64,000 nt of DNA from Candidatus Saccharimonadota bacterium (GTDB taxonomy: Bacteria; Patescibacteriota; Saccharimonadia; UBA4664), in contig JACAFG010000005.1 of NCBI GenBank assembly GCA_019352195.1, positions 27,582 through 91,581 of the forward strand, written 5' to 3'. The notes beneath the pieces were generated by a model. The model saw only the letters and a program-made list of their open reading frames with translations. It did no database searches and was not told the origin of the DNA. The position numbers were made by a program, and so were the translations under genes. Positions 1 to 27,142 of the stretch are shown piece by piece. The first letter of the stretch is position 1. Every line of letters starts with the position of its first letter.

Positions 1-671
1 AGACACTTAAGTATCGATGCGTATGAACGAGAGCTAATAGCCACTTGCTGGTTGGTAGCTAGACTGCCAAAAGTAAGGGTAAGGTCCAAACTACGAAATG
101 AGTCGCTTGAGCTATCTATGATGGGAATTATACGATCTTTGATGAGCGACAGAGTCGTATTATCAGAATATTTTAGGGTTATTTGGGCGGCCTGGCGGAG
201 GGTTAATTTGTCACCGATTCTTAAATGAGTTGGATTACCGTACACCGGATCAGCGTCTAGATCGACAGGATTCACAGTGCTTACATTATCGAGGCTTATC
301 TTGCCTTGTTCTGCGAGCTTATATAAATCCATTACAAGCGGAGTTTTGAGAAGTGAGGCAGCCTGCGAAGTGTTGTCATCACCGTCGCGAATGTTTACGC
401 CATTGGGCAGATATTCGAAATAGAGGCTGTGTGACACATTTAGACCGGCCAAATAGAGTTTGAGGTTTTGACGTAATGGATCAAAATTTATGATCTCAGG
501 ATGTGTGGCTGAATCGCTAACGGATGGGTCGAGAAGCGAGTATGGGGCGGCACTAGTCAGGGGCTTCTGAGTAGAAGTCTGATGGTCGTGCCCAAGAATA
601 AAACCACCACCAACCAGCGCGGCCGCTACTAGAGTTGCAGCAAGAGATTTAATAACTGTTGACAGTGCCAT
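1..671 (-). CDS. class A beta-lactamase-fold serine hydrolase (partial; C-terminus runs off window start)
   Basis: Manual minus-strand translation from ATG at 671-669 is open to position 1. It is missing from the ORF track because it is open-ended. N-terminal signal/TM is MALSTVIKSLAATLVAAALVGGGF. An S-x-x-K motif (QAASLLK) and an S-D-N motif (YSDNTT) lie ~60 aa apart, as in class A beta-lactamases/PBP-like enzymes. Confidence 0.55.
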   Translation of the reverse strand, partial: MALSTVIKSLAATLVAAALVGGGFILGHDHQTSTQKPLTSAAPYSLLDPSVSDSATHPEIINFDPLRQNLKLYLAGLNVSHSLYFEYLPNGVNIRDGDDNTSQAASLLKTPLVMDLYKLAEQGKISLDNVSTVNPVDLDADPVYGNPTHLRIGDKLTLRQAAQITLKYSDNTTLSLIKDRIIPIIDSSSDSFRSLDLTLTFGSLATNQQVAISSRSYASILKC

Positions 672-714
672 TGGAAGAAATTATATCAACAAAGCGAGCC
701 AATGGGCTAATTAG

Positions 715-1665
715 CTACTGCGTGACAAAATAGTCGTAGCTAAGAGTTGAGCCGGCGGGAGGGGGAGTGTCGGTATGGACCGTAAAGCCGGTGGCATTGC
801 GGGTAACGTAGGCTGGCGTGCTGGCGGCGGCACTCGTGAGGGGAGTCAGCAACACGTGGGTGGTGGCGGTGTAGGCGGCCCGAAATACTACGGTGATAAT
901 TACGCCGGCCGGCGGGCCTGAACCAATGTTGGCGTTAAAGGTGCCGGACGTGTCATTGCCAGAAATTGAGATCGTTCCGCCACCACCGATGGCCGTACCG
1001 CCGGTACCGGTGGGGACAGTGCCTTGGGTTTGGAGATGGCTAATAATGAGGGCGCCCGTGATCGAAATATTTTTTACCGAAATGCTCGCCGCATTAATAG
1101 CATTAATACTGGCAGTCCCGGCCACGTTGAGGCCGCTGTTGATAGTAACAACATCGTTGACGCTGAGGCTTTTTTGGAGGGTGGTCGTGCCGCCAACCGT
1201 GAGGTTAGACCCGACATTGAGGCCCGTGAGCGCGGTGGTACCGGTAATATTGAGCTGGCTGAGTACGACCGGACCATTGGCATTAAAGCGGCCGGTGACT
1301 GATAAATCACCTCCAATGCCAACATTGCCTTTGAATAAACTATCGGCGCCAATACTAAGGGTTTGACCGGTGCTCCCCAGCGTACCGCCCGCTTGTGATA
1401 ATTTGCTCAGCTCGTCTGGGGTTAGGGTCTGCACGGTTGTCGTTGAGTTACCTGAAGGGGAATTGAAGGCGCGATTGGTAAAGAAGCCACCGACTCCTCC
1501 AAGCACAAGGAGCGTCAGCAATAAAACGGCGACACCCGAGACGGTGTTAGCCCGCGCTTTCATGGCGGCCCATGAGCGCGGATGTTTTGGTTTGGGCGGC
1601 TTTACGGGCCCCGTAGGCGGGGGTGTTACAACGGGCGATCCCGATGATGGTGTTAGTGGCGGCAT
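715..1665 (-). CDS. membrane-anchored Gly/Thr/Asn-rich beta-helix-like repeat surface protein
   Basis: 316-aa ORF. It has a Pro-rich cytoplasmic N-tail, a single TM (VAVLLLTLLVLGGVGGFF), then degenerate ~15-aa G/N/T-rich repeats. The overlapping + strand ORFs 893..1366 and 1024..1302 are taken as spurious. Confidence 0.6.
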   Translation of the reverse strand: MPPLTPSSGSPVVTPPPTGPVKPPKPKHPRSWAAMKARANTVSGVAVLLLTLLVLGGVGGFFTNRAFNSPSGNSTTTVQTLTPDELSKLSQAGGTLGSTGQTLSIGADSLFKGNVGIGGDLSVTGRFNANGPVVLSQLNITGTTALTGLNVGSNLTVGGTTTLQKSLSVNDVVTINSGLNVAGTASINAINAASISVKNISITGALIISHLQTQGTVPTGTGGTAIGGGGTISISGNDTSGTFNANIGSGPPAGVIITVVFRAAYTATTHVLLTPLTSAAASTPAYVTRNATGFTVHTDTPPPAGSTLSYDYFVTQ

Positions 1666-1726
1666 AGCTAGCCATTATTATACTCCAAGCACAAGCACGT
1701 TGCCAAAATTCTTATTTTGGATCAAA

Positions 1727-2515
1727 ATGCCTGATATGACGGTGGTGCGACGTGTTGGGTTTCTGGTGGCGGCTGGGGCATTAAGTCTCTGGCCAGCGGC
1801 GCTGTGGGCCGATGCCACACAGCTTAGTCCCAGTTACAGTATTAATGAAAGCCAAATCGGCGGCATTGGTGATAATGGTAGCCAATCAACCAGCTATAGT
1901 TTTAAGCCCAGCGTGTCCGACGGGGGATCAACGCTTGGAGACAGCTTTACCGGCAACTCCGCTTCAACTATTTATCAAATCAATTCGGGCTTCAACACGG
2001 CGTCCAGCCCAACGCTTAGCTTTAGTGTTACCAGCAGCAGTGTTAACCTCGGCACATTATCAACTTCGGTGGTTCGAACTGGTACGGCGACCTTTAATGT
2101 TAAAAACTATACGTCGTCGGGGTATGTCGTGCAGGTGATCGGAGCGGGGCTTACGAGCGGCTCTCACACGCTGAGCGCATTATCAACCGACACTGCCAGC
2201 TCCCCCGGCACCGAGCAATTTGGTCTTAATACCGTATTTAATACCGTGGCGGGGGTTGGCGCCAACCCGGTGCAAAACCCAGCCGGCTTTGGCTATGGAG
2301 TGGCCGGTGACGGCGCTACCGGTACCTTTGGTACGACGCGTCCTTATACTATCCCCGACAAATACCGGTTCGTGAGTGGCGATACCATTGCTTCGGCACC
2401 CAGTAGTTCGGGCGAAACTGACTATACAACCACATTTATGGCCAACATTAGTAACCTAACTCCCGGAGGAACGTACCAAGGCAATATCATATTTGTTGCC
2501 ACCGGCACGTTTTAA
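1727..2515 (+). CDS. secreted Ser/Thr-rich surface protein, WxL-like family paralog 1
   Basis: The ORF 1370..2515 contains an internal ATG at 1727, followed by signal peptide MPDMTVVRRVGFLVAAGALSLWPAALWA. It carries a conserved SQFG/EQFGLN motif and a C-terminal IIFVATGTF shared with the next three genes. Confidence 0.55.
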   Translation: MPDMTVVRRVGFLVAAGALSLWPAALWADATQLSPSYSINESQIGGIGDNGSQSTSYSFKPSVSDGGSTLGDSFTGNSASTIYQINSGFNTASSPTLSFSVTSSSVNLGTLSTSVVRTGTATFNVKNYTSSGYVVQVIGAGLTSGSHTLSALSTDTASSPGTEQFGLNTVFNTVAGVGANPVQNPAGFGYGVAGDGATGTFGTTRPYTIPDKYRFVSGDTIASAPSSSGETDYTTTFMANISNLTPGGTYQGNIIFVATGTF

Positions 2516-2623
2516 ACAGTTGTCCAAGCTATAAGTTTGGTAGTGTTGTAAAGATAGCTTGACCCAGTCATTCCGCTTATGTTAATTTGTTTACATAAAG
2601 GGTAAGGGTTAAAAAGGGAAAAT

Positions 2624-3784
2624 ATGTTACTCAAGTATATTAAATATGAGCTCGAACGGCTTCATGTCGGCGTCTGGCTCGGAGTTGCTGCAGTAGCCGC
2701 ATCGCTGCTCGTTCCAATGACTGCTAGCGCAGCCGGACAAATTACAACCAGGAGTGTTACGCCGAGTACCTCTGCAGGGGCAGCAACTGGTGTTACCTAC
2801 ACCTCAACGTTCACGCTCGCAACTTCGGCTCAGACACTCGGATCCATTAAGGTTGAAATCTGCGACTCACCGCTAGCCACTACGGCTTGTTCGGCGAGTT
2901 CAACCAGCGGTGTTAATTCAAACGGTGCATCATTTAGCTCTGCCACGCTAACCAGCTTGACTGGTGCCGGTGGTGGTGCTTTTTCTGCCAGCACTAAGAC
3001 CGGTGCTTCAACGTCTGGTACCTCGTTTATCTTCACTCGTTCGGCGAGCGCTGTAACGGGTACGCCAACCTTGGTTTTAACAATTGGTAACGTTACCAAC
3101 CCAACGGGTGTTAACCAAGCCTATTACTTCCGTATCTCAACCTACTCAGATACAGCGGCTACAACGCCTAGCTACCCTGGTACCGACTTCGGTGCAGTAG
3201 CCATGGATACTACGCAAAGCGTTACTGTTAATGCTAACGTGCAAGAATCTTTGACCTTCTGCGTTGGCACGGTTGCCACGCCTGCCAACTGTGCGGCTGA
3301 GACTGGTTCGACAGTTAACATTGGTACCGGTACGGACAACATCCTGTCAACTTCACCTTCAGGTGGTATTTCGACGATGCTCGCTTCTACCAACGCTTCG
3401 TCCGGATACGCGATAACCTACACGGCCGGCAACTTAAGTTCTTCCAGTGACACCATTACCGCTATCAACGGTGGTTCCGGCACGAAGCTAGCCCTGCCTG
3501 GTGCTGGTACAGCCGCCTTTGGCATCAACCTCATGAGCAACACAGCTCCAAGTATTACCAACTCGGCAGCTGTTGCTGGTTCGGGTACCGGTGTTGCTAG
3601 TACGAACTATGCCACCACCAACCAGTTTGCCTTTGTTCCGGCTACTGCAACCACCATGGCGTCGGCCGCTGGCCCAACCGTATCAAACACTTACACGGTT
3701 TCTTACGCGGCTCAAGCTGGTGCTACTACCAAGCCTGGTGCGTTTACGACGACCTTTAATTACATTGCGACCGGCACGTTCTAA
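2624..3784 (+). CDS. secreted Ser/Thr-rich surface protein, WxL-like family paralog 2
   Basis: 386-aa ORF with signal peptide ending ASAAG. It has an AFGINL motif and a C-terminal FNYIATGTF. AAGGGA lies upstream of the ATG. Confidence 0.7.
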   Translation: MLLKYIKYELERLHVGVWLGVAAVAASLLVPMTASAAGQITTRSVTPSTSAGAATGVTYTSTFTLATSAQTLGSIKVEICDSPLATTACSASSTSGVNSNGASFSSATLTSLTGAGGGAFSASTKTGASTSGTSFIFTRSASAVTGTPTLVLTIGNVTNPTGVNQAYYFRISTYSDTAATTPSYPGTDFGAVAMDTTQSVTVNANVQESLTFCVGTVATPANCAAETGSTVNIGTGTDNILSTSPSGGISTMLASTNASSGYAITYTAGNLSSSSDTITAINGGSGTKLALPGAGTAAFGINLMSNTAPSITNSAAVAGSGTGVASTNYATTNQFAFVPATATTMASAAGPTVSNTYTVSYAAQAGATTKPGAFTTTFNYIATGTF

Positions 3785-3854
3785 GGACGTCCGGCCGACG
3801 GGTCGGCCGGCATAGATGATCCCGATATTACGACCCCCCTTAAACCCCAACTCG

Positions 3855-4907
3855 ATGAAAATCAAACGCTTTATAGAACAACTCGCACTCGTTGCACTCG
3901 CCGCTTCTGCGGTGGGGGTGACGGGTGCGAATGCTGCTGGCGGGATTACTTCGCGAAGTGATCTGATGGGTTCTGCCGCGGCCAGCGCGACCACGACCCA
4001 CCAGATTTCATTCACGACTGCGAGTTCGGCGAGCATTGGTTCGGTTAGCTTTACCTACTGTACGACGGCGTATTCTGCCTGTGTCGTTCCTGCCGGACTG
4101 AGCACGACTACGGCTAGTCTGAGCTCGCAAAGCGGTACCGGCGGCACCGGGTTTAGCATTGTGAACGGTACTAATGGTGCGCCCTACGTTACTCGTTCGT
4201 CTTCGGCCATTGGCAGTAGCGTGGCTCTAAGCTATACCCTCAGCGGTGTGGTTAACCCTAGCAGTACTAACACGGAGTTTTACGTTCGCGTCGCCACCTA
4301 TACGGGTACCGATGGGGCTACCGGAGTAGTAGATAACGGTGTCATCGCTATCTCCACTTCGCAAGAGATTACCGTCACGGGGACGATGCCCGAAAGTTTG
4401 GTATTTTGTGTCGGGACCGCAGGCACAGACTGCACTAATATGACCGGGTCGGCGGTTGGGCTGGGTATTTTCTCGCCGGCGGTCGCTTCGACTGGTACGA
4501 GTGTCATGAGCGCTTCAACGAACGCTTCGTTTGGTTACGCCATCACGATTACCGGTACTACGATGCAAAGCGGCGCTAATACGCTGCCGGCGATGGGAAC
4601 ACAAACGCAAAACTCCAGTAATAATGCGGCCTCGGCTACCGGATCGAGTCAGTTTGGGACTAATGTTCGCGCTAATACCACTCCGGCCGTGGGTAGTGAT
4701 GTTTCGGGATCTGGTACTGCTGTTGGCCAAGGTGGCTATAACACCGTCAATGGCTTCCGATTTATGAGCGGCGACATTGTGGCGGGAGTTGCGGGGCCGA
4801 CTAATGCCAACTTGTTTACGAATACCTATCTCGTAAACGTTGGCGGCAACCAAGCGGCCGGCGTATATACCTCAACCTTTACTTACATTTGTACGGCGAC
4901 GTTTTAA
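3855..4907 (+). CDS. secreted Ser/Thr-rich surface protein, WxL-like family paralog 3
   Basis: Internal start MKIKRF... with signal peptide ending ANAAG. It has an SSQFGTN motif and a C-terminal FTYICTATF. It is a clear paralog of the 4907..5947 gene. Confidence 0.7.
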   Translation: MKIKRFIEQLALVALAASAVGVTGANAAGGITSRSDLMGSAAASATTTHQISFTTASSASIGSVSFTYCTTAYSACVVPAGLSTTTASLSSQSGTGGTGFSIVNGTNGAPYVTRSSSAIGSSVALSYTLSGVVNPSSTNTEFYVRVATYTGTDGATGVVDNGVIAISTSQEITVTGTMPESLVFCVGTAGTDCTNMTGSAVGLGIFSPAVASTGTSVMSASTNASFGYAITITGTTMQSGANTLPAMGTQTQNSSNNAASATGSSQFGTNVRANTTPAVGSDVSGSGTAVGQGGYNTVNGFRFMSGDIVAGVAGPTNANLFTNTYLVNVGGNQAAGVYTSTFTYICTATF

Positions 4908-5947
4908 TGACGACGAATATGTTTCATTCACGCATTCGTAACAAACTGGTAGCTGCGGCGGCCGCGTTAATCGTATTCTCGCCGCTCACGGCCGACGCGG
5001 CGGGGTTAACGGCGCGCTCCGATGTTATGGGAACGTCGGAGGCCGGTATCAGCACCACACACATTATTTCGATGACAACGGCCACCGCGGCCAGTATTGG
5101 TTCAATTGGCTTTTTGATGTGCACTACTTCGTCCGGTGCGTGTACCGTACCTTCAGGACTGGTAACTATCAGTGCTACGTTGTCAGCCCAGAGTGGCACC
5201 GGTGGGACCGGGTTTACACTGAACGCAACCACCAACGGTGCGCCCTATATAACCCGCACGGCAGCGGCCATTGCGGCTAGTGTTCCGCTTAGCTATACAT
5301 TGTCGAACGTTACTAACCCAACCGCTACTGATACCACGTTTTATATCCGTATTACGACCTATACCGGCTCGGACGGAGCAACCGGCGCCACTGATACCGG
5401 CCAGATTGCCGCTTCAACCGCGACGCCAATTCAGCTGACCGGGGTAACCCCGCCAATTTTGGTATTTTGCGTCGGTACGAGTATCCCGACCGACTGTACG
5501 AGTGCCACGGGGAATACCATCGACTTCGGTGATTTCTCGCCGGCTAGCACCAACATCGGAACCAGCGTGATGCAGGCGCAAACCAACGCGGCTAACGGCT
5601 ATACCATAACCGTAAACGGCACCACGCTGTCGTCCGGTACCAATACGATAACCGCTATGAGCGGCGCTGCTAGCACCACCGGATCGAGTCAGTTTGGCCT
5701 TAACTTACGGGTAAATACCGCGCCGGCGGTGGGCGCCGATGTTACCGGACCGGGAAGTGGGGTGCCAGTGTTCAACTACGCGAGTGCCAATAACTATCGT
5801 TTTAATACGGGCGATGTGGTGGCTTCGGCAGCGCTGCCCACGAACGCTAATACCTTTACGACCAGCTATATTGTGAACATTGGCGGAGCTCAGGCGGCGG
5901 GTGTATATACCGCCACCATGACCTACATCTGTACGGCTAGTTTCTAA
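4907..5947 (+). CDS. secreted Ser/Thr-rich surface protein, WxL-like family paralog 4
   Basis: Its ATG overlaps the previous stop (TAATG). Signal peptide ends ADAAG. It has an SSQFGLN motif and a C-terminal MTYICTASF. Confidence 0.7.
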   Translation: MTTNMFHSRIRNKLVAAAAALIVFSPLTADAAGLTARSDVMGTSEAGISTTHIISMTTATAASIGSIGFLMCTTSSGACTVPSGLVTISATLSAQSGTGGTGFTLNATTNGAPYITRTAAAIAASVPLSYTLSNVTNPTATDTTFYIRITTYTGSDGATGATDTGQIAASTATPIQLTGVTPPILVFCVGTSIPTDCTSATGNTIDFGDFSPASTNIGTSVMQAQTNAANGYTITVNGTTLSSGTNTITAMSGAASTTGSSQFGLNLRVNTAPAVGADVTGPGSGVPVFNYASANNYRFNTGDVVASAALPTNANTFTTSYIVNIGGAQAAGVYTATMTYICTASF

Positions 5948-5980
5948 TAATCCGCTAAGGACCAACTTAACCGTGACTGA

Positions 5981-7069
5981 GTGAGTATGAAAATCTTAGT
6001 AGTCAAGGTGCGTCTATCCAAAGATGTTACTTATGCTATACTGGCTTTAATGAAGCGGTGGACGATTGGTTTTGTGGTAGCTATGGTTGCTGTTGCGGCA
6101 CCTTGGGCGGCGGCGTTAGCCGCGACGCCTGTGGCGTCGCCAGCTGCCGCTACGGCTAATCCCGGCCAAGGCCTCGAGATCTCGCCGCCGGTGCTCGAAC
6201 TTAACGCTGATCCAGGTCAAACGGTAACGGCGGTGATTCGCGTTCGCAACGTGAGCTCGGGAACGTTGGTTGCGACTGGTAAGGCCGACGACTTTGGCGC
6301 TTCCGGTGAAGACGGTAAGCCGAAGCTGCTGCTGGATGAAACCTCGGCGACGCGCTATTCGCTCAAGTTTTGGGTTGCATCGGTACCAACGTTAATTTTG
6401 GCGACCCAAGAGTTGAAGACTGCCACTGTGCAAATTGTGGTCCCAAAGGACGCTGAGCCGGGTGGTCACTATGGGGTAATTCGCTTTACGGGTACGCCGC
6501 CAAACTTGCAGGGAACCGGAGTATCGCTCTCGGCTAGTGTTGGCACATTAGTATTGCTGCGCGTGAGCGGCGCCATCACCGACAGCGTGAAAGTAGCTAG
6601 CTTTACCACCAATCAAGCGGCAGTCCCGGCCGATGCTAGCCATAAGGCCCAGCCAGCCGGCCTGACCTCGAGTTTCTTTGAGCATGGACCAATTAACTTC
6701 GTACTGCGCATTCAAAATGACGGTACGGTGCACGAGCAGGTGAAGGGCAACATTGTTGTTAAGAACACCTTCGGCAAAACGGTCGCTACTGTTACCGTTA
6801 ATCCCGACGGCGGCAATGTACTCCCCGGGACGATTCGCCGCTTTGAGCAGAGTATGGCCAACAAGCGTATGTTTGGCTACTATAAGGCAACCTTTACCGG
6901 CAGCTACCTCGACGACAACCACAAGCTGGCTTCAACCGTTAGCTTTTGGGTCATTCCGTGGAAACTCATACTCCTCATTATCCTTGGCATTGCGATCTTA
7001 ATCTGGCTGCTGCGCCTGGCCTTCCGTCGCTATAACGCCTTTATTATTGCCCAGGCTCGCAAGCGCTAG
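5981..7069 (+). CDS. DUF916/DUF3324-like (CscA-like) cell-surface protein with C-terminal membrane anchor
   Basis: It has an N-terminal signal sequence. A motif GLEISPPVLELNADPGQTVTAVIRVRNVS follows, typical of DUF916 Ig-like domains. The C-terminus has a TM plus basic tail (WKLILLIILGIAILIWLLRLAFRRYNAFIIAQARKR). The true start may be the internal Met at ~6050. Confidence 0.6.
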   Translation: MSMKILVVKVRLSKDVTYAILALMKRWTIGFVVAMVAVAAPWAAALAATPVASPAAATANPGQGLEISPPVLELNADPGQTVTAVIRVRNVSSGTLVATGKADDFGASGEDGKPKLLLDETSATRYSLKFWVASVPTLILATQELKTATVQIVVPKDAEPGGHYGVIRFTGTPPNLQGTGVSLSASVGTLVLLRVSGAITDSVKVASFTTNQAAVPADASHKAQPAGLTSSFFEHGPINFVLRIQNDGTVHEQVKGNIVVKNTFGKTVATVTVNPDGGNVLPGTIRRFEQSMANKRMFGYYKATFTGSYLDDNHKLASTVSFWVIPWKLILLIILGIAILIWLLRLAFRRYNAFIIAQARKR

Positions 7070-7128
7070 GCGGATAAGCTAGCGACAGATATATTACGCT
7101 TATGCTACACTAGTGCCATGATATTCAC

Positions 7129-8064
7129 GTGCTATCCATGCTAGGCGCTGAACATAATTTGCGTCTGCGAGCGCATTCGCATACTTCGTATCCTGGCTTG
7201 TTATTTGCCTTGTTACTCACTGGTGTAATCGTATTGGGTGCCAGCATTGGCGCCCAGGGAGCGGTGCAAAATCCGCAATCGGGATCGGTTGGGCTTACCG
7301 GCACCGTGCCGGGTCCGGCGCCAACCCAGCCCGGCGTTATTACGAGCCCGAGTTCGGGCAGTCATACTACGTCGAGTCCTATTACCGTGGCAGGGACGTG
7401 TCCGGCCAATACTTTTGTCTTCATCGAGAAAAATGGCGTCCTCGCCGGGCAAGCCGCTTGCAACGGCGGTAGCTTTAGCCTGCAGGCCGACTTGTTTGCT
7501 GGTTCAAATCAGCTGGTGGCGCGCGTCGTGGACGGACTTGGCCAATACGGGCCTGATTCTGCCGCTATTACCGTGGTATACGATCAGCCCACCTCGCAAA
7601 CGGCAGGTATTGCCGTAGGACGCCAACTCTTCATTGAGAGCGGTGCTACCGTCGTCGCCGGTGAACCAAATACGGCTCTAGCGCGCGAGGTAAGGATTGT
7701 GGGTGGTACCGCGCCTTATGCGGTGTCGTGGGACTTCGGTGATGGTTCAAATAGCCTTATGACCGTAGCAGTTGAGGGCCCGGTGAGCGCGCTCCATACG
7801 TATACCTCGCCGGGAACGTATCAAGTGCTGGTTCGGGTTACCGATTCATTGCAAAATGCGGCGTTTATCCAATTGATTACGGTGGTAAATGGCCCGATAG
7901 CAGCGGTAACGGGAAGTAGTACCCAATCGGAGCTACCCGGTTCGCTGGTGGCCGCGTGGCCATTATTAGGTCTGGCAATATTTCTTGTGGGCGCGTTTTG
8001 GTTGGGTGAGCGGCGTGCTATGCACCGTCAGATGCTGCGTGATCGTTTGCGGCCTGTAGTGTAA
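7129..8064 (+). CDS. PKD-domain membrane protein
   Basis: It has an N-terminal TM. A PKD signature is present (YAVSWDFGDGS...HTYTSPGTYQVLVRVTD). A C-terminal TM is followed by a basic tail. Confidence 0.65.
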   Translation: MLSMLGAEHNLRLRAHSHTSYPGLLFALLLTGVIVLGASIGAQGAVQNPQSGSVGLTGTVPGPAPTQPGVITSPSSGSHTTSSPITVAGTCPANTFVFIEKNGVLAGQAACNGGSFSLQADLFAGSNQLVARVVDGLGQYGPDSAAITVVYDQPTSQTAGIAVGRQLFIESGATVVAGEPNTALAREVRIVGGTAPYAVSWDFGDGSNSLMTVAVEGPVSALHTYTSPGTYQVLVRVTDSLQNAAFIQLITVVNGPIAAVTGSSTQSELPGSLVAAWPLLGLAIFLVGAFWLGERRAMHRQMLRDRLRPVV

Positions 8065-8667: not shown

Positions 8668-8684
8668 ATAAAAACGCTTATGAT
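8656..8684 (+). promoter_or_regulatory. sigma70-like promoter TTGTGT-17-TATGAT of the giant surface-protein gene
   Basis: -35 TTGTGT 8656-8661, 17-nt spacer, -10 TATGAT 8679-8684. The same promoter with the same AAACGCTTATGATT spacer/-10 recurs at 14886-14914. Downstream is GGAGA-3nt-GTG. Confidence 0.5.
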
Positions 8685-8713
8685 TGGAACAGTATTTTTG
8701 TGTTTGGAGACCT

Positions 8714-11700
8714 GTGAGCAGACTTTGGCTGTTAAAGCTAAATAAGCGTCCCGCCATAACACGAATCTACACCGCCCTAGCGCTTGCCGGGCTGTTTTGG
8801 GTTGGACTTATCACGCTTAACATACCCACAGCTTCGGCTACTGGTGCAGCGGGAATCTATTCAACCATCAATTACCAAGGGCGTTTGCTGACTTCGACGG
8901 GCGCCGTGGTTCCCGATGGAACGTATAACATGGAATTTCAGATTTGGCAGGACGGCAACGGTTGTGTTACCGGCTGTACTTCGGCCAATGCGTCAACCAA
9001 CAACGGCGGTACGCTTAAATGGACCGAGGACTACGTTTATGGCACCGGCTCTCCAGACAACCGCGTGACGGTGAAAAATGGCTATTTCTCGGTGAGCCTT
9101 GGTTCGATTACATCGCTGTCTAGTGTCAACTTCAACTGGGACACAAACTACCTCACGACTAATATTGGTAATACTTCGACAGCCGCTACCTTTAGCGTGG
9201 CTTCGGGCGATGGATACATGATTCCGTTTAAGCGCCTCAGCGCTAATCCTTATGCCCTTAACTCGTCGCAGCTGGGCGGCCTCACCAGTTCACAGTACAC
9301 GCAGCTCGGCCAGGGTATCCAGGGTGCCGCAACTACCGGTACGACGGCGCTTATTGGCCTCAACCAAACCTCCACCGGTACCATTTTGGACCTGCAAAAA
9401 GGTGGCGCCGACGTACTGCTTATCGACTCAACTGGATCAACTTTGTTCCGTCCCACTACCGACTCGGCTATCGCACTGCAGGTACAAAAAGCCGGTACCA
9501 CCACGACGGTGTTTACGGTAGATTCGTCCAACTCGCGCATTGGCATTGGCACGGCGGCACCAGCCTACGCCGTGGACGCGGTGGGCTCGATTAATGCTTC
9601 CACGAGCCTCAAAGTTGCTGGAACTGATGTTTGTACCACGGCTGGCTGTACCGCTGATCCGGCCTCAGCTATCAAGAACCAAAACAGTGCCCAGCAGACG
9701 AGTGCCAACTTTTGGATTTCAGGCAGCGGACGCGCTGATACAAGTATTCTCACCCCTGGACTCGATACCGCCACTGGTGTTGCCCTTGCGATTGGAACCA
9801 CGAATGCTACGAGTATTAACCTCAACGAGAGCACCAATGTAGCCACGGGCAAAACTTTTACCACAAACGGCAGTGGTTTTGACGCTACCGGTAAACTTGG
9901 CATTGGCACTACCAGCCCGGCGGCCAACCTGGACGTACACAGTACCGCCACGACTGGAAATGCGCTGAGCGTTACGGCGAACAACCTAACCACCGGTATC
10001 GCCGTCAATGTCTCCAGTAGCCCTACCGCCGGGACAGGCGGCGCGCTTATTAATGCCAGTCAGTCAGGAACTATAACTACGTCTGGTACCGTGGGTGGCT
10101 CGCTGCTCAATGTGCAGCGCAGTATTACGGCCAATGTGTCAGCAGCAAGTGCGATCACGTTTGATTCTAAAACCACATCTTCGAGCTACACGTGGTCGCA
10201 CACCGTAGCCAGCCAAACGAACCGAATTTTAATTGTGGAATGTGATTCTTCGAGTGCAGCCACTAGTGCTACCTATAACGGCGTTGCTATGACTTTGATT
10301 GGCACCATCACGAACCCATCGAACCCATCAGCGTTAACCTTCTGGAAGCTCCTTGCTCCGGCCACTGGAACTCACGCGGTTACTATGGACCAAAACTGCA
10401 ACGTTGGTGCTGCTATAGGTGGCGTTTCCAGTAGTTGGTATAACGTTGATCAGACTACAGGCACAGGGACGTTCAGTAGCAATGACGCGGCGGCTAACAA
10501 TGTCTCGGTCAGCGTGGCATCGTTATTTGGCCAGGTGGTGATTGACGGAGCCGATGCCTACTTAAACGGTTATAGTTCATGGACAAATATTCCTGGCTCG
10601 GGTCAAACTATGCTCCTCAATCCTTCGTTGAGTTACGATTCGGTAGGGGCTAGTTATAAGGCTGGGGCCGCCACCTCAACTACTATGACCTGGAACTTCA
10701 GCGCTGGCGCTGGTGTACATATCTATATCGGTGGTTTTGCGCTTATTCAAGCACCGACTGGTTCCGCGGTAAACCTAGTGGGTTCGATTGTAAACCTTGG
10801 CTCCAACTGCACTAACACCGCGGGCGGATGTGCCGACAACAGTAGTATTTTGAGCCTAAACCAGCAGTACGCTAGTGCTTCAGGCGCTGTGGCAACGTTG
10901 CAGAATGCTGGAACCGGAGATATGGTCGATTTCCTGAACGGCTCATCGAGCATACTATCGGGCTTCGACTCGAGCGGTAACCTGTTTTTCAATAACTCTA
11001 CCTTCAAGTCCACGCTGAGTACGGGTACCCTCTCAGCGCCGCGATCGATCACGTTGCCAGACGCGAGCGGCACGGTGTGTTTGTCGGTAGGTAACTGTAG
11101 TGCAGCGGGTGGGTACATTGTCAATGGCACGAGCTTGCAGGCCAGCTCTAACTTCCATATTTCGGGCAGTGGAACGGCCGACACGAGCCTGTTGACCCCG
11201 ACCTTGGATACGGCGAGTGCTAGTGCATTGTCGATCGGAGTCACTGCAGCTACCACCATCGGCCTCGGCCGTAGCGGCCAAACGCTCAACATTGGCAGCG
11301 ATGCGATTAACCTCAATAACGGCTATTTGAATGTGGCAGGTACCACGTCGGCCACCAATTCGAAAGCATCGCTGGCTGGGACCGTGGCCTCGAGTACTAC
11401 TTCGCAATATGGGTTGGATAACGAAGTGGCCTTTAATCCGCAAGTAGCTATTACCGGCGCGGTGTATGGCAGCGTCAATATTCCCAACTTGTCGGGCAGC
11501 GCTCTGGCTGTTAGTTCGCTGCAAGGCTTTACCGCCGGAGTAAAAGAAACGGGCGGCGTTGGCAATTTTACCGGTACGGTTACGGACGCAATCGGGCTCA
11601 ACATTACCTCACCTCAAATCACGGGTGGTGGCAATAAATTTACCACCTACACGGGAGTCGACGTGGGTGCCAACTCCATTAACGGCGGTAACACCTCCGG

Positions 11701-14700
11701 TATCCTCACGAACAACGGCATCATCGTCGAGAGTATTTCGGCCGGCGCGGGTTCCGGTGGGACGGTTAATAACTACGGTATTAATCTCGCCCAGCCGAGT
11801 GGTAGCGGTACCGGCACGACCAACAACTACGGCATTAACATTCAGGGTGCGGGTGGTGGCTCTAACAACTACTCCATCTACAACCAATCGACGGCGGCCA
11901 GTTACTTCTCGGGCAATGTTGGCATTAACCAACTGACCACCGGCTCCTACAACCTGAATGTAAACGGCACGGCTAACTTTGCGACCAGTATTAATGTGCC
12001 GAGCATTACATCGAGTGCGGGCCTCACCTTGGCGACTACGGGGACGAACGGTCTGACGGCTGATACAGGTGGAGCAGGGACTATCAAAGTTGGTGCGGCC
12101 AACGCCAACAGTATTTTGATTGGAACAGCGACAACAGCCCAGGCATCTGGCGCGACAGGCACTATCTTCATTGGCAACACGAACTCAACAATTGTCGGTA
12201 TTTCGGGTCAAACGGTTGGTGTTGGTTCACCCTCCGGTGGCGCGCTGTTTATTACGGGCGGCGGTGTCAATGTGCAAGGTGCGTCGGCATTGGCGATGCT
12301 TTTCAATGTCACCAACACATCAAACAAGACCATCCTTCATGTCGATAGTAGCGCTAATGTGGTGAGCTTGGGCCAAACTTCAAACCTGACTGGCCAACTG
12401 CAATTTAGTAATGCGACGAACGCGTTTACGTCGACGATTCAGGGTAACACGGCAGCAACGGCGAGCTACACGTCGATTTTGCCCGGCGCGGTAGGGTCGG
12501 CTGGTCAATGTTTGACCGTGGCTAGCGTGGCCTCGACAACGCAAACCCTGGGTTATAGCGCTTGTGGCGGCGGTAGCTACGTAACGTTGCAAGGTGTTAC
12601 GCCCGGCACGGCCGATACTGGTAATCTCAATATTACTGGCACGGGTATCTTTGCTACTCAGATAACTTCGCCGATCGTTAAGACAACGAACCTGCGCCCA
12701 ACGGCCGACGGCACCTCGGCTATTCAATTCCAGAACGCTGCTGGCACCACTAACGTGTTGACGGTTGATACTACGAATAGTCGAATTAACGTAGGTACCA
12801 ATGGCACACCGACTGGGCAATTGTATGTTTCGGGTACTTTGCCGACGGCTGCGGCTGGATCGGTATCAACTGGCTCAGCTCCTAATAACATTTACGTTCA
12901 AGGTCATTACGCCTATACAGCCAACTATAGCTCTAGCACGCTCGGTATTTATGATGTCAGTAACCCCGCCGCCCCTTTCAGTGTAGGGTCGGTCTCTATC
13001 TCCATAGCGACCAATGTCTATGTTCAGGGTCGTTATGCCTATGTTACAAGCCAGGGCAGCGGTGGCATTGTCATTGTTGATGTCAGTAATCCAAGCAGTC
13101 CGATCAGTGTTGGCTCGGTAGCTACGGGGAGTAATCCCAAGAGTATATTTGTACAAGGAAGTTATGCGTACGTAGTCAATAACGGAGCTAGTACCATAAG
13201 CATTGTTGATGTTCACAATCCGGCAAGCCCCACAATCATCGGATCTACGGCTACAGGCCTCAATCCAAGCAGTGTTTATGTCCAGGGCAGGTATGCCTAT
13301 GTGATAAATAATACTGCGAGTACCTTGAGCATTATTGATGTCAACAATCCGGCAAGTCCATCCAGTGTTGGATCGGTAGCTACTGGCTCCAACCCAAATG
13401 CCGTCTTTGTTCAAGATAACTATGCATATGTAACAAATAACAGCGGTGCCGGGATGAGCGTCATTGATGTCTCGGCCCCAAGTGCGCCATCGAGCGTGGG
13501 TACCGTAGCAACCGGTACGTCTCCCAACGGTATTTACGTTCAAGGACGGTACGCCTATGTGGCAAATAGTGGCTCAAACACAATTGGCATTTACGATGTT
13601 GGTGGCGCCTACACGCAGCAACTGGAGGCGGGCGGAGCACAGCTAGGTATGCTGGCCGTGGATGGCAACTCTACGTTGGCTGGAGATGCCTCGGTGCAGG
13701 GCGGCCTGCAGGTAGGGCAGAGCGTCCAAATTGGGGGCGATGCCGGTATTAACGGTGGCTTGTCGGTGGGGGGCTCGGCGTCATTCGATGGTCCCGTGCA
13801 GGTAGGTTCATCGCTTACCGACACGACGCAGGTAAACTTGCAGCTCGATTCGACGAGCTTGTTCGCAGATAGCGGCACTTGCAGCACCACCACTAATCAG
13901 GGTGCCTTGTATTACAATACCAACACCAACGCCATCCGGAGTTGTGTGGGCGGAGCGTGGGAAGACGTGATAACGACGAGTGGTCTTGGCCTGGTATTAT
14001 TTGGTATTGTGCCCGACGGTGTAGCAACAACCGGTGTCGGCGACTTGGCTGGTGCCGGCGGATATAATTCGGGTCCGTGCAAAGTTTACATGAGCGGTAC
14101 GGCAAATATTATTGTCTGGAACTCGTGTACGGCGTACTCGAGTGGCCGCAAAGTGGCGGTGGCCGCCGGTACAGCGACGGTGAGTTCGAGCACGAGTGTC
14201 TTCCAAAACTTGTGTATCAATACATCGGGCGTGGCGGCGCTGGTGGGAACGGCTAACGCCACAGAAACTACCGCTGGCCTGTTCCCGGCCTTTTCACCGA
14301 GCGCACCAATACTGTGTTTGGCTACCATAAAAACGGCGACGGTAGCGAATAAAGTGGCGGCAATTTACGATACGCGCGTATATACCACCGATGACAAGAC
14401 CATTGCGACCATTGCAACTACTACCGGCCTTGGATCGATGGTCACAAACAACGGCACCCTCGGTCGCTATGCACCCACGAGTGCGGTAACCAACTCAATT
14501 ATGGGCGTGGTGGTGGCCTATAGCGGCACGGTGAGTACGGCAACGCCGAATGCGATTATTGTTACCTATGGTCCAGTGGCCATTAAAGGCACGGGTACTT
14601 CTGGCACGATTGCCCAGATGATTGAATGGGGTGCGGCCAACGGTTATGCCACCACGGTGGCGGCGGCGACGACGGCCACCAACCCTTATACGTATGCTGG

Positions 14701-14794
14701 TGTGGCCCAAAATACCAATGGTACCGTAGCGGCAGGCTGTGCTGTGTACACGGCATGTAGTGGGTCGTTGTTTACTACTTTTGCGCCAAGATAA
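8714..14794 (+). CDS. giant secreted cell-surface protein with LVIVD beta-propeller repeats
   Basis: The ORF track gives 8684..14794 (2036 aa) from a TTG that lies upstream of the predicted transcription start site (TSS). The likely start is GTG 8714, preceded by GGAGA, giving MSRLWLLKLNKRP... plus a hydrophobic core and ASA cleavage site. Seven tandem ~40-aa LVIVD-type repeats (YVQGRYAYV...IVDVSNP) lie at ~12890-13600. The protein is T/S/G/A-rich, with GIGTTSPAANLDV tail-fibre-like motifs. Confidence 0.8.
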   Translation: MSRLWLLKLNKRPAITRIYTALALAGLFWVGLITLNIPTASATGAAGIYSTINYQGRLLTSTGAVVPDGTYNMEFQIWQDGNGCVTGCTSANASTNNGGTLKWTEDYVYGTGSPDNRVTVKNGYFSVSLGSITSLSSVNFNWDTNYLTTNIGNTSTAATFSVASGDGYMIPFKRLSANPYALNSSQLGGLTSSQYTQLGQGIQGAATTGTTALIGLNQTSTGTILDLQKGGADVLLIDSTGSTLFRPTTDSAIALQVQKAGTTTTVFTVDSSNSRIGIGTAAPAYAVDAVGSINASTSLKVAGTDVCTTAGCTADPASAIKNQNSAQQTSANFWISGSGRADTSILTPGLDTATGVALAIGTTNATSINLNESTNVATGKTFTTNGSGFDATGKLGIGTTSPAANLDVHSTATTGNALSVTANNLTTGIAVNVSSSPTAGTGGALINASQSGTITTSGTVGGSLLNVQRSITANVSAASAITFDSKTTSSSYTWSHTVASQTNRILIVECDSSSAATSATYNGVAMTLIGTITNPSNPSALTFWKLLAPATGTHAVTMDQNCNVGAAIGGVSSSWYNVDQTTGTGTFSSNDAAANNVSVSVASLFGQVVIDGADAYLNGYSSWTNIPGSGQTMLLNPSLSYDSVGASYKAGAATSTTMTWNFSAGAGVHIYIGGFALIQAPTGSAVNLVGSIVNLGSNCTNTAGGCADNSSILSLNQQYASASGAVATLQNAGTGDMVDFLNGSSSILSGFDSSGNLFFNNSTFKSTLSTGTLSAPRSITLPDASGTVCLSVGNCSAAGGYIVNGTSLQASSNFHISGSGTADTSLLTPTLDTASASALSIGVTAATTIGLGRSGQTLNIGSDAINLNNGYLNVAGTTSATNSKASLAGTVASSTTSQYGLDNEVAFNPQVAITGAVYGSVNIPNLSGSALAVSSLQGFTAGVKETGGVGNFTGTVTDAIGLNITSPQITGGGNKFTTYTGVDVGANSINGGNTSGILTNNGIIVESISAGAGSGGTVNNYGINLAQPSGSGTGTTNNYGINIQGAGGGSNNYSIYNQSTAASYFSGNVGINQLTTGSYNLNVNGTANFATSINVPSITSSAGLTLATTGTNGLTADTGGAGTIKVGAANANSILIGTATTAQASGATGTIFIGNTNSTIVGISGQTVGVGSPSGGALFITGGGVNVQGASALAMLFNVTNTSNKTILHVDSSANVVSLGQTSNLTGQLQFSNATNAFTSTIQGNTAATASYTSILPGAVGSAGQCLTVASVASTTQTLGYSACGGGSYVTLQGVTPGTADTGNLNITGTGIFATQITSPIVKTTNLRPTADGTSAIQFQNAAGTTNVLTVDTTNSRINVGTNGTPTGQLYVSGTLPTAAAGSVSTGSAPNNIYVQGHYAYTANYSSSTLGIYDVSNPAAPFSVGSVSISIATNVYVQGRYAYVTSQGSGGIVIVDVSNPSSPISVGSVATGSNPKSIFVQGSYAYVVNNGASTISIVDVHNPASPTIIGSTATGLNPSSVYVQGRYAYVINNTASTLSIIDVNNPASPSSVGSVATGSNPNAVFVQDNYAYVTNNSGAGMSVIDVSAPSAPSSVGTVATGTSPNGIYVQGRYAYVANSGSNTIGIYDVGGAYTQQLEAGGAQLGMLAVDGNSTLAGDASVQGGLQVGQSVQIGGDAGINGGLSVGGSASFDGPVQVGSSLTDTTQVNLQLDSTSLFADSGTCSTTTNQGALYYNTNTNAIRSCVGGAWEDVITTSGLGLVLFGIVPDGVATTGVGDLAGAGGYNSGPCKVYMSGTANIIVWNSCTAYSSGRKVAVAAGTATVSSSTSVFQNLCINTSGVAALVGTANATETTAGLFPAFSPSAPILCLATIKTATVANKVAAIYDTRVYTTDDKTIATIATTTGLGSMVTNNGTLGRYAPTSAVTNSIMGVVVAYSGTVSTATPNAIIVTYGPVAIKGTGTSGTIAQMIEWGAANGYATTVAAATTATNPYTYAGVAQNTNGTVAAGCAVYTACSGSLFTTFAPR

Positions 14795-21998: not shown

Positions 21999-23827
<1,829 letters not shown>

Positions 23828-24691
23828 CTAATTATTGCTAACCGCTTCGGCGCCGCCGGAAATTTCGGCAAGTTCCTGCGTGATGGCGGATTGGCGGGCA
23901 TTGTTACGGGCGAGCGTTAAGTCGTCGATAATATCGGACGCATTATCGGACGCGTTCATCATGGCCAGCATGCGGGCGGCCTGCTCGGAAGCGCGTGCTT
24001 CAACGATCGAAAGATACACTTCGGCCTCAAGTAATCGCTCGGTGGCGGTAGCCAGCACGGTCTCCGGGTTGGGCTCGGCCTCGGGTGAGGCCGCAGTTGA
24101 GCTACTGTCGCTTGAGGCTACCGGAAGGAGCTGCCGCGAGTCGACTGTTTGGACAGATGACGACACAAATCGGGTCGAAATAAGATGAACCACGTCGCAT
24201 TTACCGCTTAAAAACAGCTCCTTGGCTTCGGCGAGAATGGGCCGCGCCAAGCCGGCATCGGCGTCGCGCGAGTCCATTTCGTAGGCGGCAATTTCGTCGA
24301 TGCCGGTAATGCGCGACAGATGTAATGAGCCCCGCTTGCCGACGGTTATTATGGCGAGTTCGCCGCCCGTTTGGCGTTGTAACTTACTCAGTTCACGAAA
24401 AATATTATTGTTGTACGCGCCGGCCAGACCACGGTCGGCGGTAACTACAATAGCCAGCGCGTTGATAGCCTCACGGCGTTGATACAACGGGCTTTGGGCG
24501 GCATCTACCGAACTGCCGAGTCGTGACAACATGTCGCGAATGGCTGCCAAATAGGGCTGCGGGGCCAAGGCGGCCATTTGGGCACGGCGCAGCTTACTGG
24601 CGGCCACCAGCTGCATGGCTTTGGTAATTTGGCGCGTATTGCTTACAGAGCGCAACCGCCGCTTAATTGCCTGGAGCTCAGCCATTGGCAT
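23828..24691 (-). CDS. atpG: F1 ATP synthase gamma subunit
   Basis: [24 protein letters not shown] is a gamma N-terminus. The ORF-track N-terminal extension overlaps atpA and is taken as not translated. Confidence 0.9.
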
Positions 24692-26222
24692 CCTCGCCGA
24701 CCATAAAGGTTTCGGCCGTGGCTTTGGCGATGGTGGCGATGGCTTTGGTCTCATCTTCGGTGGGCTTGGTACCAGCGTTTAGATTGGTTACCAGCTTAGC
24801 GTGACTCTTTTTGACGCTGCGTAGCAAGCCATGAATGGCGCTCTCGAGGTGCTTACTGGGCAGATTGTCGAATTCGCCGCTAGCAGCTGCCGACAAAATG
24901 ACGACCTGCTCAGCGGGGCTGTAGGGAGCAAACTGCCGTTGTTTTAATGCTTCAGTGAGCAGGCGGCCGCGGTCGAGCCGACTCTTGGTTTCGTCATCTA
25001 GGTCGGTGGCAAACTGCGAGAAGGCGGCCAGTTCGCGGAATTGAGCGAGCTCGATGCGTAAGCTTCCGGCGACACTCTTGATGGCTTTGGTTTGGGCGTC
25101 GCCACCAACGCGGCTGACTGACAAACCAACCGAAATGGCGGGACGGATACCTTGGTAAAACAAATCGGTTTCGAGGAAAATCTGGCCATCGGTAATAGAA
25201 ATCACGTTGGTCGGGATGTAGGCAGAAACGTCACCAGCTTGCGTTTCAATAATCGGCAAAGCGGTTAAACTGCCGCCGCCTAGCTCGTCGGACAACTTAG
25301 CCGAACGTTCGAGCAAGCGTGAATGGAGATAGAAAACGTCACCCGGATAAGCCTCACGACCCGGGGGACGGCGTAGCAGCAACGAGAGCTGGCGATAAGC
25401 GACGGCGTGCTTAGACAGGTCGTCATACACAATCAGGCCGTGCTGTTTGTTATCGCGGAAGTACTCGCCGATGGCCGTACCAGCGTAGGGCGCGAGGTAG
25501 AGCAGCGAAGCGGGATCGGCAGGGCTGGTGGCCACCACAATGGATTGGTCCATGGCACCTTCGCGCTTGAGGCGCTCGACTAACGCGGCTACTTTGGAGT
25601 TTTTCTGGCCAATGGCCACGTAAATATTGATCACGCCGGTATCGCGTTTGGCCTGGTTGAGCATGGTGTCGATGGCAATGGCGGTTTTACCGGTTCCGCG
25701 GTCGCCAATGATGAGCTCGCGCTGACCGCGACCAATCGGTACCATCGTGTCGATGGCTATAATGCCGGTCGCCATTGGTTCATGCACACTCTTACGAGCC
25801 ATAACACCGGGTGCAACTTGTTCGACCGGTGCTGTCCGGGTGGTCTTGATGTCGCCAAGGCCATCGAGCGGACGGCCAAGGGGATCGACCACGCGGCCCA
25901 TGAGTTCGGGTCCAACGGGGATGCTGAGCAAGCGGCCGGTAAGTTTTACTTTGGCTCCAGCGCTGACGGCGCTTTCGTTGCCAAGCAACACGGCCCCGAG
26001 CTCGTCTTCGCCGAGGCTGAGAACAAAGGCTTCGGCCACGCCGCCCGCGGTTTCAATTGATACTACTTCACTAAAACCAGCGCTGCGCAAACCGTATATC
26101 CAGGCGACACCATCACCAACTCGGGTTACGACGCCAATTTGGCTGAAGTCGCCGGTGGCACTAAGGCCGCCAATGGCAGCCTGCAGCTCGGCGGTTAATT
26201 CTTGGACGCGTAAATCGCTCAC
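24678..26222 (-). CDS. atpA: F1 ATP synthase alpha subunit
   Basis: P-loop GDRGTGKT. 514 aa. Confidence 0.95.
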
Positions 26223-26605
26223 AGGCTCATCTCCGTTACAAAGGCGCGTAGTTTGGTGCTGGTGGTAGCGTCCAATTCGGCGTCAGGCAGGGTTAATTTG
26301 ATGCCGCCACCAACCGTTGGATCAACGGTGGTTGCCAGCTCGACAGAGCGGGCGGAGGTGGTGCGGCGAATGTAGGTTTCAAGTTCAGACTTAATAGCGG
26401 GCGGGAGGGGTTTGGCGGACGTGGCTGTAGCCGATACGTAGCCACTGAGAGCCAAAATACTGGCGATGTCGCGACTTAGGAGCGCCACATCCTTGGTACG
26501 GTGATTGTCGATTAGCCAGGCAGCCGCTATCTGGAGGCGGTGCTGGCGGTCGGAGCTAAGACCGTCCGCGACGTAGGCAGCCAAACGGCGGCGGGTGAGC
26601 TTCAT
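26219..26605 (-). CDS. atpH: ATP synthase delta (OSCP) subunit, short
   Basis: Its position between atpF and atpA, and its helical composition. Confidence 0.7.
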
Positions 26606-27138
26606 GATTTGGCCTCCAGACTACGCTTAATGAGGGCACTGTCGCCAGCGCCGTCGAGTTTGTCACCTAAGACAGTTTCGGTAGCCTGGGCGACCAAGGC
26701 GGCGGTTTCAGCGCGGAGGGTGCGCCGGGCCGAGGCAACGTCTTTGGTGAGCTGTTCGCGCGATTCAGTCACAATACGGTCGGCTTCCGAGGCCGCCCGA
26801 GTGCGGGCGGCGGTCACGGTTTCGGCAGCTTCGGCTTTGGCAGCGTCGATGAGCTCGTCGGCTGAAACTTGGGCTGCGCCTAAGATGGCGTGGCGCTCTT
26901 GCTCGGCCTTAGCCAGTTCGGCGGCGGCTTGAGACTGCATTTTGGTGGCGGCAGTGAGCTCATTGGCCTTGGCGTCGAGGGCTTTGTTTAAAACGGGGTA
27001 CACATACTTGCCGAGCAGCCACACAATAATGAGGAAGGCAATGATGTTTAACAACAAGGCTTTCCAATCGATGCCGAGCGCGCCGAGCAGACCTCCCGAA
27101 GCGGCATCGGCCATATAACTAGTTGGCAAGAATGTCAT
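26602..27138 (-). CDS. atpF: Fo ATP synthase b subunit
   Basis: An N-terminal TM is followed by a long A/E/K-rich coiled coil. Confidence 0.8.
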   Translation of the reverse strand: MTFLPTSYMADAASGGLLGALGIDWKALLLNIIAFLIIVWLLGKYVYPVLNKALDAKANELTAATKMQSQAAAELAKAEQERHAILGAAQVSADELIDAAKAEAAETVTAARTRAASEADRIVTESREQLTKDVASARRTLRAETAALVAQATETVLGDKLDGAGDSALIKRSLEAKS

Positions 27139-27142
27139 CGGC

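Follow-up and report, generated by a model that had tools for sequence, protein, structure and literature searches.

The Pam pilus of the parasitic bacterium Candidatus Mycosynbacter amalyticus is known from cryo-electron microscopy (cryo-EM) structures of its PamA and PamB filaments and from an accompanying assembly model (bioRxiv 10.64898/2026.03.03.709456). Here, we compare with it a six-gene locus at positions 1727-8064 of a 64-kb stretch of DNA (the window, meaning the whole stretch that was analysed) from a bacterium of the Candidate Phyla Radiation (CPR). The components described in M. amalyticus are PamT, PamA, PamB, PamE, PamC, PamD, and PamR, of which PamT was proposed as the tip pilin, PamC and PamD as PapD-like chaperones anchored by a transmembrane (TM) helix, and PamR as a TM-anchored terminator (bioRxiv 10.64898/2026.03.03.709456). 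In the PamA and PamB structures, a linker strand fills the C-terminal domain (CTD) of the neighbouring subunit, and the membrane anchor of the chaperones was described as a substitute for the missing outer membrane. The NCBIfam models NF058578, NF058579, and NF058581 used below stem from the same preprint.

The other described system that bears on this locus is the Csc/WxL surface complex, in which CscA is a WxLIP protein (DUF916, DUF3324, and a TM helix), CscB and CscC are small and large WxL proteins, and CscD is an LPXTG protein, with examples in E. faecium locus A and L. plantarum (PDB 9i1y, 9i25). The original prediction for this DNA had read the six genes as such a complex outside the Firmicutes.

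Family assignments and gene content

All six open-reading frames (ORFs A-F) lie on the same strand with intergenic gaps of 11-108 bp and encode secreted or membrane products, namely one single-domain pilin, three two-domain pilins, a protein whose two immunoglobulin (Ig)-like domains precede a C-terminal TM helix, and a membrane protein of PKD/Ig type. The locus, which comes from a Candidatus Saccharibacteria (CPR/Patescibacteria) bacterium, very probably encodes a Pam pilus. It is thus a further example of a system already described in 2026, and operons of this kind are frequent in CPR. Directly supported here are the assignment of the proteins to their families, their domain architectures, the CPR identity of the host with the gene neighbourhood, and the homology between the chaperone and WxLIP. 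Searches with hidden Markov models (HMMs) made from the pilin domains and the chaperone located four pilin genes and a single chaperone gene in the 64-kb window and no copies beyond these. A scan for promoters and terminators returned counts at or below shuffle expectation and was uninformative.

ORFs A-D each begin with an N-terminal hydrophobic signal segment and are paralogous (identities: A vs B-D 28-31%, D vs C 57%, D vs B 39%), and all four match one domain model, NF058581 (Pam_pilin_C, 'Pam pilus system pilin subunit'; E 3e-24 to 1e-46), with 144.9, 85.8, 134.5, and 158.4 bits for A, B, C, and D, all above its cutoff of 55 bits. The four consecutive paralogous secreted proteins of the original prediction are thus borne out, while the two motifs reported for them hold in part: [SE]QFG[LT]N is present in A, C, and D with AAFGIN at that place in B, and the strict C-terminal pattern [YF]T.T[FM].YI.TA[TS]F is confined to C and D, A and B fitting only the relaxed form [YF]xxx[FMI]x[YF][IV]xT[AG][TS]F that closes all four pilins at the very C-terminus. 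The strict motifs were not found elsewhere in a six-frame translation of the window. ORF A also matches NF058579 (CPR_pilus_PamT) with 227.5 bits (E 1.5e-67) over profile positions 7-241 of 241. It consists of a signal peptide and the Pam pilin CTD, has neither an N-terminal sandwich nor a linker, and is not matched by the HMM of the pilin N-terminal domain (NTD).

Both the NTD and the CTD HMMs match ORF B, the most divergent paralogue, in which the NF058581 match covers residues 227-386 and two cysteine pairs occur (80/89 and 213/223); in ORF C, cysteines stand at 82/89, 198/206, and 359. ORF D is 100% identical to NCBI HJC99_04490. In its AF2 (AlphaFold) model, the NTD (about residues 30-172) is an all-beta sandwich with a predicted local distance difference test score (pLDDT) above 90, and the CTD has a pLDDT of 39-74, mostly below 70. 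The low confidence of the modelled CTD may reflect a fold that requires a donated strand. Few stretches of the family alignment are as conserved as the linker between the two domains, with L177-G190 nearly invariant.

ORF F matches NF058578 (CPR_pilus_PamR, 'pilus system RbmA-like protein') with 278.5 bits (E 4.5e-83) over profile positions 3-289 of 297. A signal/TM segment and an N-terminal strand are followed by a Glucodextran_B-like and a PKD domain, both Ig-like, then by a C-terminal TM helix at 7951-8007 with a basic tail. Its Pfam matches are PKD (PF18911 E 1.3e-8, PF00801 E 1.7e-8) and Glucodextran_B, so the PKD-domain membrane protein expected at this place is indeed there. Its conserved N-terminal strand resembles the pilin linker and, judged by its sequence, agrees with a strand-donating terminator.

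The host and the surroundings are also those of a Pam locus. ORFs D and E are 100% identical to proteins of a 226-kb contig from a metagenome-assembled genome named 'Candidatus Saccharibacteria bacterium', and an F-type ATP synthase operon lies at 22430-28313 of the window, which matches the conserved pam neighbourhood of the preprint. The gene order PamT, two pilins, chaperone, and PamR beside the ATP synthase recurs in the related loci L003, L005, L020, and L021. In L003 and L005, the Pam models score above the equivalog cutoffs, save for one PamR 0.2 bits short, with the PamT counterparts at 289 and 252 bits. A Pam-CTD ORF stands immediately upstream of the chaperone in eight further loci (L003, L005, L017-L022), including the more distant chaperone-family loci L017-L019 and L022. 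The original prediction had regarded the cluster as an unusual occurrence for its host; this does not stand, since the host is a Saccharibacterium, the operon is widespread there, and what is present is the normal CPR version.

Several points weigh against a Pam assignment. ORFs A and F fall just under their equivalog cutoffs (240 bits for PamT and 300 for PamR), and NCBIfam has no model naming the chaperone ORF E. Where M. amalyticus has two chaperones and a 55-kDa PamA, this locus encodes a single chaperone and three pilins of PamB/E size (352-386 aa). PDB sequence searches with pilin D and the family profile returned nothing relevant, the PDB set apparently lacking PamA and PamB. The pilin CTD gave no confident model, so the groove and the fit of a donor strand are not seen. 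Taken with the family matches, the Pam operon here is ordinary but slightly different, with a single chaperone and no PamA-sized pilin.

The locus would most probably build an usher-less, Sec-dependent donor-strand-exchange pilus. Extracellular helical filaments formed in this way are known only for PamA and PamB of M. amalyticus (bioRxiv 10.64898/2026.03.03.709456), and it is from that cryo-EM work and from AlphaFold models that we infer, for the present locus, that filaments form, which strand is donated, how the subunits are ordered, and what PamR does. On that model, Sec would export all six products, and the Ig-like CTD of each newly exported pilin would be incomplete, with an open groove that the membrane-anchored ORF E would cap with a strand of its own, perhaps from its hairpin. 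Donor-strand exchange would follow, the conserved inter-domain linker of the next pilin displacing the chaperone strand and extending the polymer. Because it has no linker, ORF A could only accept a strand and would be the first acceptor at the distal tip, with B, C, and D forming the shaft. ORF F would give its N-terminal strand to the last pilin, stop growth, and, by means of its C-terminal TM helix, keep the fibre anchored in the cytoplasmic membrane, so that neither an usher nor a sortase would be needed.

Table 1 Coordinates of the Pam locus, of its predicted donor strands, and of associated features in the window and in Firmicute loci
Feature	Location	Strand	Description
ORF A	1727-2515	+	262 aa; PamT-like single-domain pilin
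ORF B	2624-3784	+	386 aa; two-domain Pam pilin
ORF C	3816-4907	+	363 aa; two-domain Pam pilin; likely start 3855
ORF D	4889-5947	+	352 aa; two-domain Pam pilin; NCBI start 4919
ORF E	5981-7069	+	362 aa; membrane-anchored chaperone, PamC/PamD type; NCBI start 6050
ORF F	7129-8064	+	311 aa; PamR-like terminator/anchor
Inter-domain linker of pilin D (IQLTGVTPPILVFCVGT)	5429-5479	+	Predicted donor strand, from conservation; role from PamA/PamB cryo-EM
Linker equivalent in B	3221-3271	+	Predicted donor strand
Linker equivalent in C	4368-4418	+	Predicted donor strand
Hairpin loop of chaperone domain 1 (GASGEDGKPKLLLDETSATRYSLKFW)	6296-6373 (residues 106-131)	+	Poorly ordered; candidate donated strand
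N-terminal strand of ORF F (VQNPQSGSVGLTGTVPGP)	7264-7317	+	Conserved, kept in L003 and L005 PamR; resembles pilin linker LTGVTPP
Neighbour of PamT	715-1665	-	316 aa; divergently transcribed; bitopic, Pro-rich N-terminus, TM residues 37-64, T/S/G-rich ectodomain
ORF G	8684-14794	+	2036 aa; about 620 bp past PamR; N-terminal TM; five LVIVD repeats (PF08309, E 1e-27, residues ~1440-1640)
WxL protein with NF053819 N-terminus	L007 3573-5849
WxL protein with NF053819 N-terminus	L009 3058-3645
WxL protein with NF053819 N-terminus	L012 4936-5790

The chaperone and its homology to WxLIP

ORF E consists of a signal peptide, two beta-sandwich (Ig-like) domains, a C-terminal TM helix at residues 327-348 (6959-7024), and a basic tail (RRYNAFIIAQARKR). 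It had been predicted as a DUF916/DUF3324-like protein of CscA architecture, and it is a genuine homologue of Firmicute WxLIP/CscA at the level of the superfamily, not of the Pfam family. ORF E itself has no Pfam match at E<=1, DUF916 and DUF3324 included, but this assignment follows from its alignments, from its modelled structure, and from matches among its relatives. PF06030 (WxLIP_PGBD, equal to DUF916) was matched at E<=0.01 by 112 of 150 diverse ORF E relatives (25-57% identity), and six of the ten relatives examined individually reached the Pfam gathering score. One of these six, P0359, is the chaperone of L003, a locus whose PamT and PamR exceed the NCBI equivalog cutoffs. PF11797 (DUF3324) was not among the families listed for the relatives. 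The check proposed earlier, a search for PF13731, PF06030, and PF11797, was therefore null on ORFs A-E and yielded PF06030 in the relatives; had the Pfam scan stopped at ORFs A-E, the DUF916 link would have been wrongly discarded, and it was the scan of 150 divergent relatives that brought it out.

The profile comparisons agree. Searched against the whole PDB, the ORF E family profile gave EfmWxLIP1 as its best sequences (9i25_C and 9i1y_A, E 0.008). Aligned by hhalign with 11 Firmicute WxLIPs, drawn from the plasmid-borne WxL clusters of Enterococcus, Melissococcus, Lactiplantibacillus, Lactococcus, and Bacillus (including pXO1), the ORF E family scored 99.1% (E 1.4e-18) over 231 columns that take in both Ig domains, and a profile of close Saccharimonadia relatives alone scored 95.3% (E 2.3e-8) over 268 columns. 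Four control pairs gave P 0.14-0.69. Foldseek placed E. faecium WxLIP structures at PDB ranks 1-3 for ORF E, followed among its further neighbours by the chaperones CfaA, YadV, Caf1M, FimC, and CsuC (E 4e-9 to 5e-7). The chaperone family comprises 7,924 cluster representatives at E<=1e-3, and the Pam chaperone and CscA/WxLIP are one family. The preprint (bioRxiv 10.64898/2026.03.03.709456) makes no mention of WxL, DUF916, or DUF3324, and in the literature searched we found no paper tying WxL clusters to donor-strand systems or to CPR, nor one linking the Pam chaperone with WxL.

The chaperone model also offers a candidate for the strand donated to the subunit groove, the hairpin of domain 1. 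In the ORF E model, the 10-residue blocks over residues 101-130 have mean pLDDT values of 65, 48, and 67, with residues 112-116 below 50, and the hairpin falls inside the domain 1 region that hhalign aligned to the Firmicute WxLIPs. In WxLIP, a loop that is disordered alone is predicted to become ordered and to complete the WxL sandwich, the same act that the preprint predicts for PamC and PamD on the pilin CTDs.

Pilins, WxL domains, and a possible common origin

Given the homology of the chaperone, the explanation that survives best beside a Pam pilus is a Csc/WxL surface complex, in which A-D would be four degenerate WxL proteins held non-covalently on peptidoglycan and stabilised by CscA/WxLIP, serving adhesion or the use of polysaccharides without forming a polymer. 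The gene order does resemble that of Firmicute clusters such as the one in E. innesii (LPXTG protein, three WxL proteins, WxLIP, sortase), and the C-terminal strand of the pilins is like the second WxL motif ('GYTTTLTWNLGATP' in WxL vs 'GYYATTLTYICTASF' in Pam). The W of that motif is itself replaced by Y in an annotated WxL protein of B. anthracis pXO1. The resemblance of the C-terminus to WxL that had been noted is thus real at the level of the motif, but membership in the WxL family was not significant by any of the comparisons made. PF13731 (WxL) was not matched by the four pilins of the window or by 44 relatives, and Pam_pilin_C was not matched by 10 Firmicute WxL proteins. The mature chains of A-D contain no tryptophan, which is confined to their signal peptides, and the dual W-x-L motif is consequently absent. 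There is also no LPXTG partner, as no LPXTG motif was found in A-F (a permissive pattern gave three loose matches within pilin B; sortase was not searched window-wide).

Alignments between the two subunit families were collinear yet weak. Across five set-ups, hhalign of the pilin CTD against WxL gave P 0.011-0.12, the collinear alignments, at P about 0.01-0.03, pairing idFG with lxFG and TNAxxGYxItV with DxRGxxxGWxvtV together with the C-terminal hairpin. The score exceeded a column-shuffle null (0 of 150 higher), yet unrelated beta-rich pairs scored nearly the same (12-18 vs 18-22). Homology of the pilin CTD to the WxL domain was therefore not counted, P being low and the controls close. Iterated HMM searches in both directions gave no cross-recruitment over 762-908 ORFs of 20-26 loci and the window; the best CPR matches of the iterated WxL HMM were Pam pilins (E 0.09-0.24), a result that composition could explain. 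From these sequence comparisons, the pilins do not qualify demonstrably as WxL proteins, and the locus, while sharing the chaperone component, lacks support as a member of the Csc/WxL family. The likeness to csc clusters accordingly holds for the chaperone and the parallel gene order and fails for the WxL subunits and the LPXTG protein. Since founding members of the pilin family have also been seen as cryo-EM filaments, a Csc/WxL complex without a polymer is an unlikely account of the locus. The two views are not fully exclusive, as strand complementation may also operate within WxL complexes.

The Pam pilin CTD HMM also weakly picked up chaperones, namely the E. innesii WxLIP (L007 5899-6996; E 0.0008-0.002) and, in a second iteration, the L003 chaperone (8974-10011). 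The Ig-like domains of subunits and chaperones may be distantly related, or this may be noise from the Ig fold or from composition; in either case it shows that weak Ig-like signals are unspecific.

A chaperone-usher operon of the classical, alternative, or archaic Gram-negative type would account for the chaperone fold shared with CfaA, YadV, Caf1M, FimC, and CsuC, and one pilin relative weakly matches the SCPU domain (E 0.038). However, no usher-sized ORF lies in 1727-8064, and the large ORF G beyond it matches only LVIVD repeats in Pfam. ORFs A-E have no Pfam match at E<=1 and hence none to the PapD family (PF00345/PF02753), to an usher, or to a fimbrial model. ORF E is also TM-anchored, unlike periplasmic chaperones, in keeping with the preprint's view of the chaperone anchor as a stand-in for the absent outer membrane. 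Such an operon is very improbable here; the confident chaperone-usher-like assignment that does exist for these pilins, in place of the WxL one, is the Pam pilus. That A-F are unrelated, clustered secreted beta-proteins rich in T, S, and G (adhesins or S-layer-like proteins) whose family matches reflect composition is more improbable still, because the bias (T+S+G 39-42% of residues), which in control comparisons does inflate weak profile scores, is set against domain-model E-values of 1e-46 to 1e-83 over full-length alignments and a PamT-pilins-chaperone-PamR order that recurs in four related loci.

With the Pam chaperone and CscA/WxLIP in one family, it becomes plausible that Pam pili and WxL clusters share an origin. 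In a tentative reading, to which we give somewhat less than even chances, an ancient donor-strand system of single-membrane bacteria, assisted by a chaperone and lacking an usher, has two branches: the Pam pili of CPR and, in Firmicutes, the Csc/WxL clusters of Enterococcus, Listeria, Lactobacillaceae, and Bacillus (including pXO1). If so, WxLIP/CscA would be a membrane-tethered chaperone and not a host-binding adhesin, WxL domains would be incomplete Ig-like subunits homologous to the Pam pilin CTD, and CscD would be a donor-strand-only terminator or anchor, the equivalent of PamR. The chaperone half of this reading is essentially shown, and the subunit half is no more than suggestive. The N-terminal ~60 residues (signal peptide and the next segment) of several Firmicute WxL proteins match NF053819, the EF0750/CscD-type LPXTG model (best E 8e-7), so that CscD shares the N-terminal segment of WxL proteins. 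This is the look expected of a donor-strand-only terminator or anchor and parallels the linker-like N-terminus of PamR.

On pXO1 of B. anthracis (L008 5205-6966) and on a related B. cereus plasmid (L024), a small-subunit gene followed by a DUF916 gene lies directly 3' of CpaF-type pilus-ATPase genes (CpaB/CpaF in L024). The pXO1 pair is annotated as WxL and DUF916/DUF3324, its WxL protein ending in KLTYSIVTGP with Y replacing the family W, and the small protein of L024 is annotated as hypothetical only.

A common origin, if true, would contradict the CPR-exclusive claim made for Pam (bioRxiv 10.64898/2026.03.03.709456) and would give WxL clusters, known for 20 years, a testable assembly mechanism. 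The robust homology of the Pam chaperone and WxLIP/CscA already joins a system presented as exclusive to CPR to clusters that have been implicated in the virulence and adhesion of Enterococcus, Listeria, and lactobacilli. The homology also points to strand complementation as the way in which WxL proteins are chaperoned, and possibly to their polymerisation, an idea that the solved WxL:WxLIP complex (PDB 9i25, with the WxL domain as chain A) makes testable. Pam pili are thought to serve ultrasmall epibiotic CPR bacteria in reaching their hosts and holding on to them, and correct annotation therefore matters for CPR genomes.

Flanking genes and comparison with known systems

The flanking genes gave no match to PHROGs. 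Upstream, the divergently transcribed protein at 715-1665 has homologues at the same position in L003 (35% identity, E 6e-43) and L005 (33%, E 4e-37) and has no family in Pfam, NCBIfam, or PHROGs; the 'tail fibre-like protein' in the neighbourhood network of the preprint may be this protein, which may otherwise be an unrecognised Pam component. Downstream, ORF G has no counterpart in the pam loci L003 and L005. On the metagenome contig of L018 (SRR21358790_45, 1-7014), a distant member of the chaperone family is flanked by a Pam-CTD protein of 334 aa and by a protein of 1514 aa, the latter likewise picked up by the Pam CTD HMM and showing a faint Pfam match to archaeal flagellin. The neighbouring genes there (rubrerythrin, HD, methyltransferases) do not resemble the Saccharimonadia context. 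Elsewhere in the window, 57625-59943 (+) encodes a 772-aa class I lysyl-tRNA synthetase (PF01921, E 1e-99) fused to a C-terminal B3_4 domain (PF03483, E 7e-24).

With the Gram-negative chaperone-usher systems (Pap, Fim, CFA/I, Caf1, and Csu), the locus shares the two-Ig chaperone fold, incomplete Ig-like subunits, and donor-strand complementation and exchange as the proposed chemistry. It differs in having no usher, no outer membrane, a membrane-tethered chaperone, and no sequence match in Pfam; in addition, Pam pilins carry an extra N-terminal sandwich and take the inter-domain linker as donor strand.

Compared with Csc/WxL complexes, the Pam subunits stand apart in lacking a PF13731 match and tryptophan. 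The anchor here is a TM protein with Ig/PKD domains, whereas the Csc anchor is a sortase-attached LPXTG peptide, and the strand donated in Pam lies in an internal linker instead of an N-terminal segment. Pam forms long filaments, while WxL proteins are described as peptidoglycan-bound surface proteins. The two systems have in common a chaperone homologous across both Ig domains with a C-terminal TM helix and basic tail, a similar C-terminal strand motif, and the same set of parts, namely a small subunit of one domain, larger subunits with that C-terminal domain in common, a two-Ig protein held by a TM helix, and a further anchored protein. AlphaFold predictions for both systems have the TM-anchored protein supply a strand that completes the beta-sandwich of the subunit.

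Relative to the Pam system of M. amalyticus, the genes of this locus run in one unbroken series of T, three pilins, chaperone, and R, with the 2036-aa LVIVD-repeat protein next. The two are alike in their CPR hosts, a single-domain tip pilin, paired pilin cysteines, a TM-anchored two-domain chaperone, a TM-anchored Ig/PKD PamR, and an ATP synthase operon nearby.

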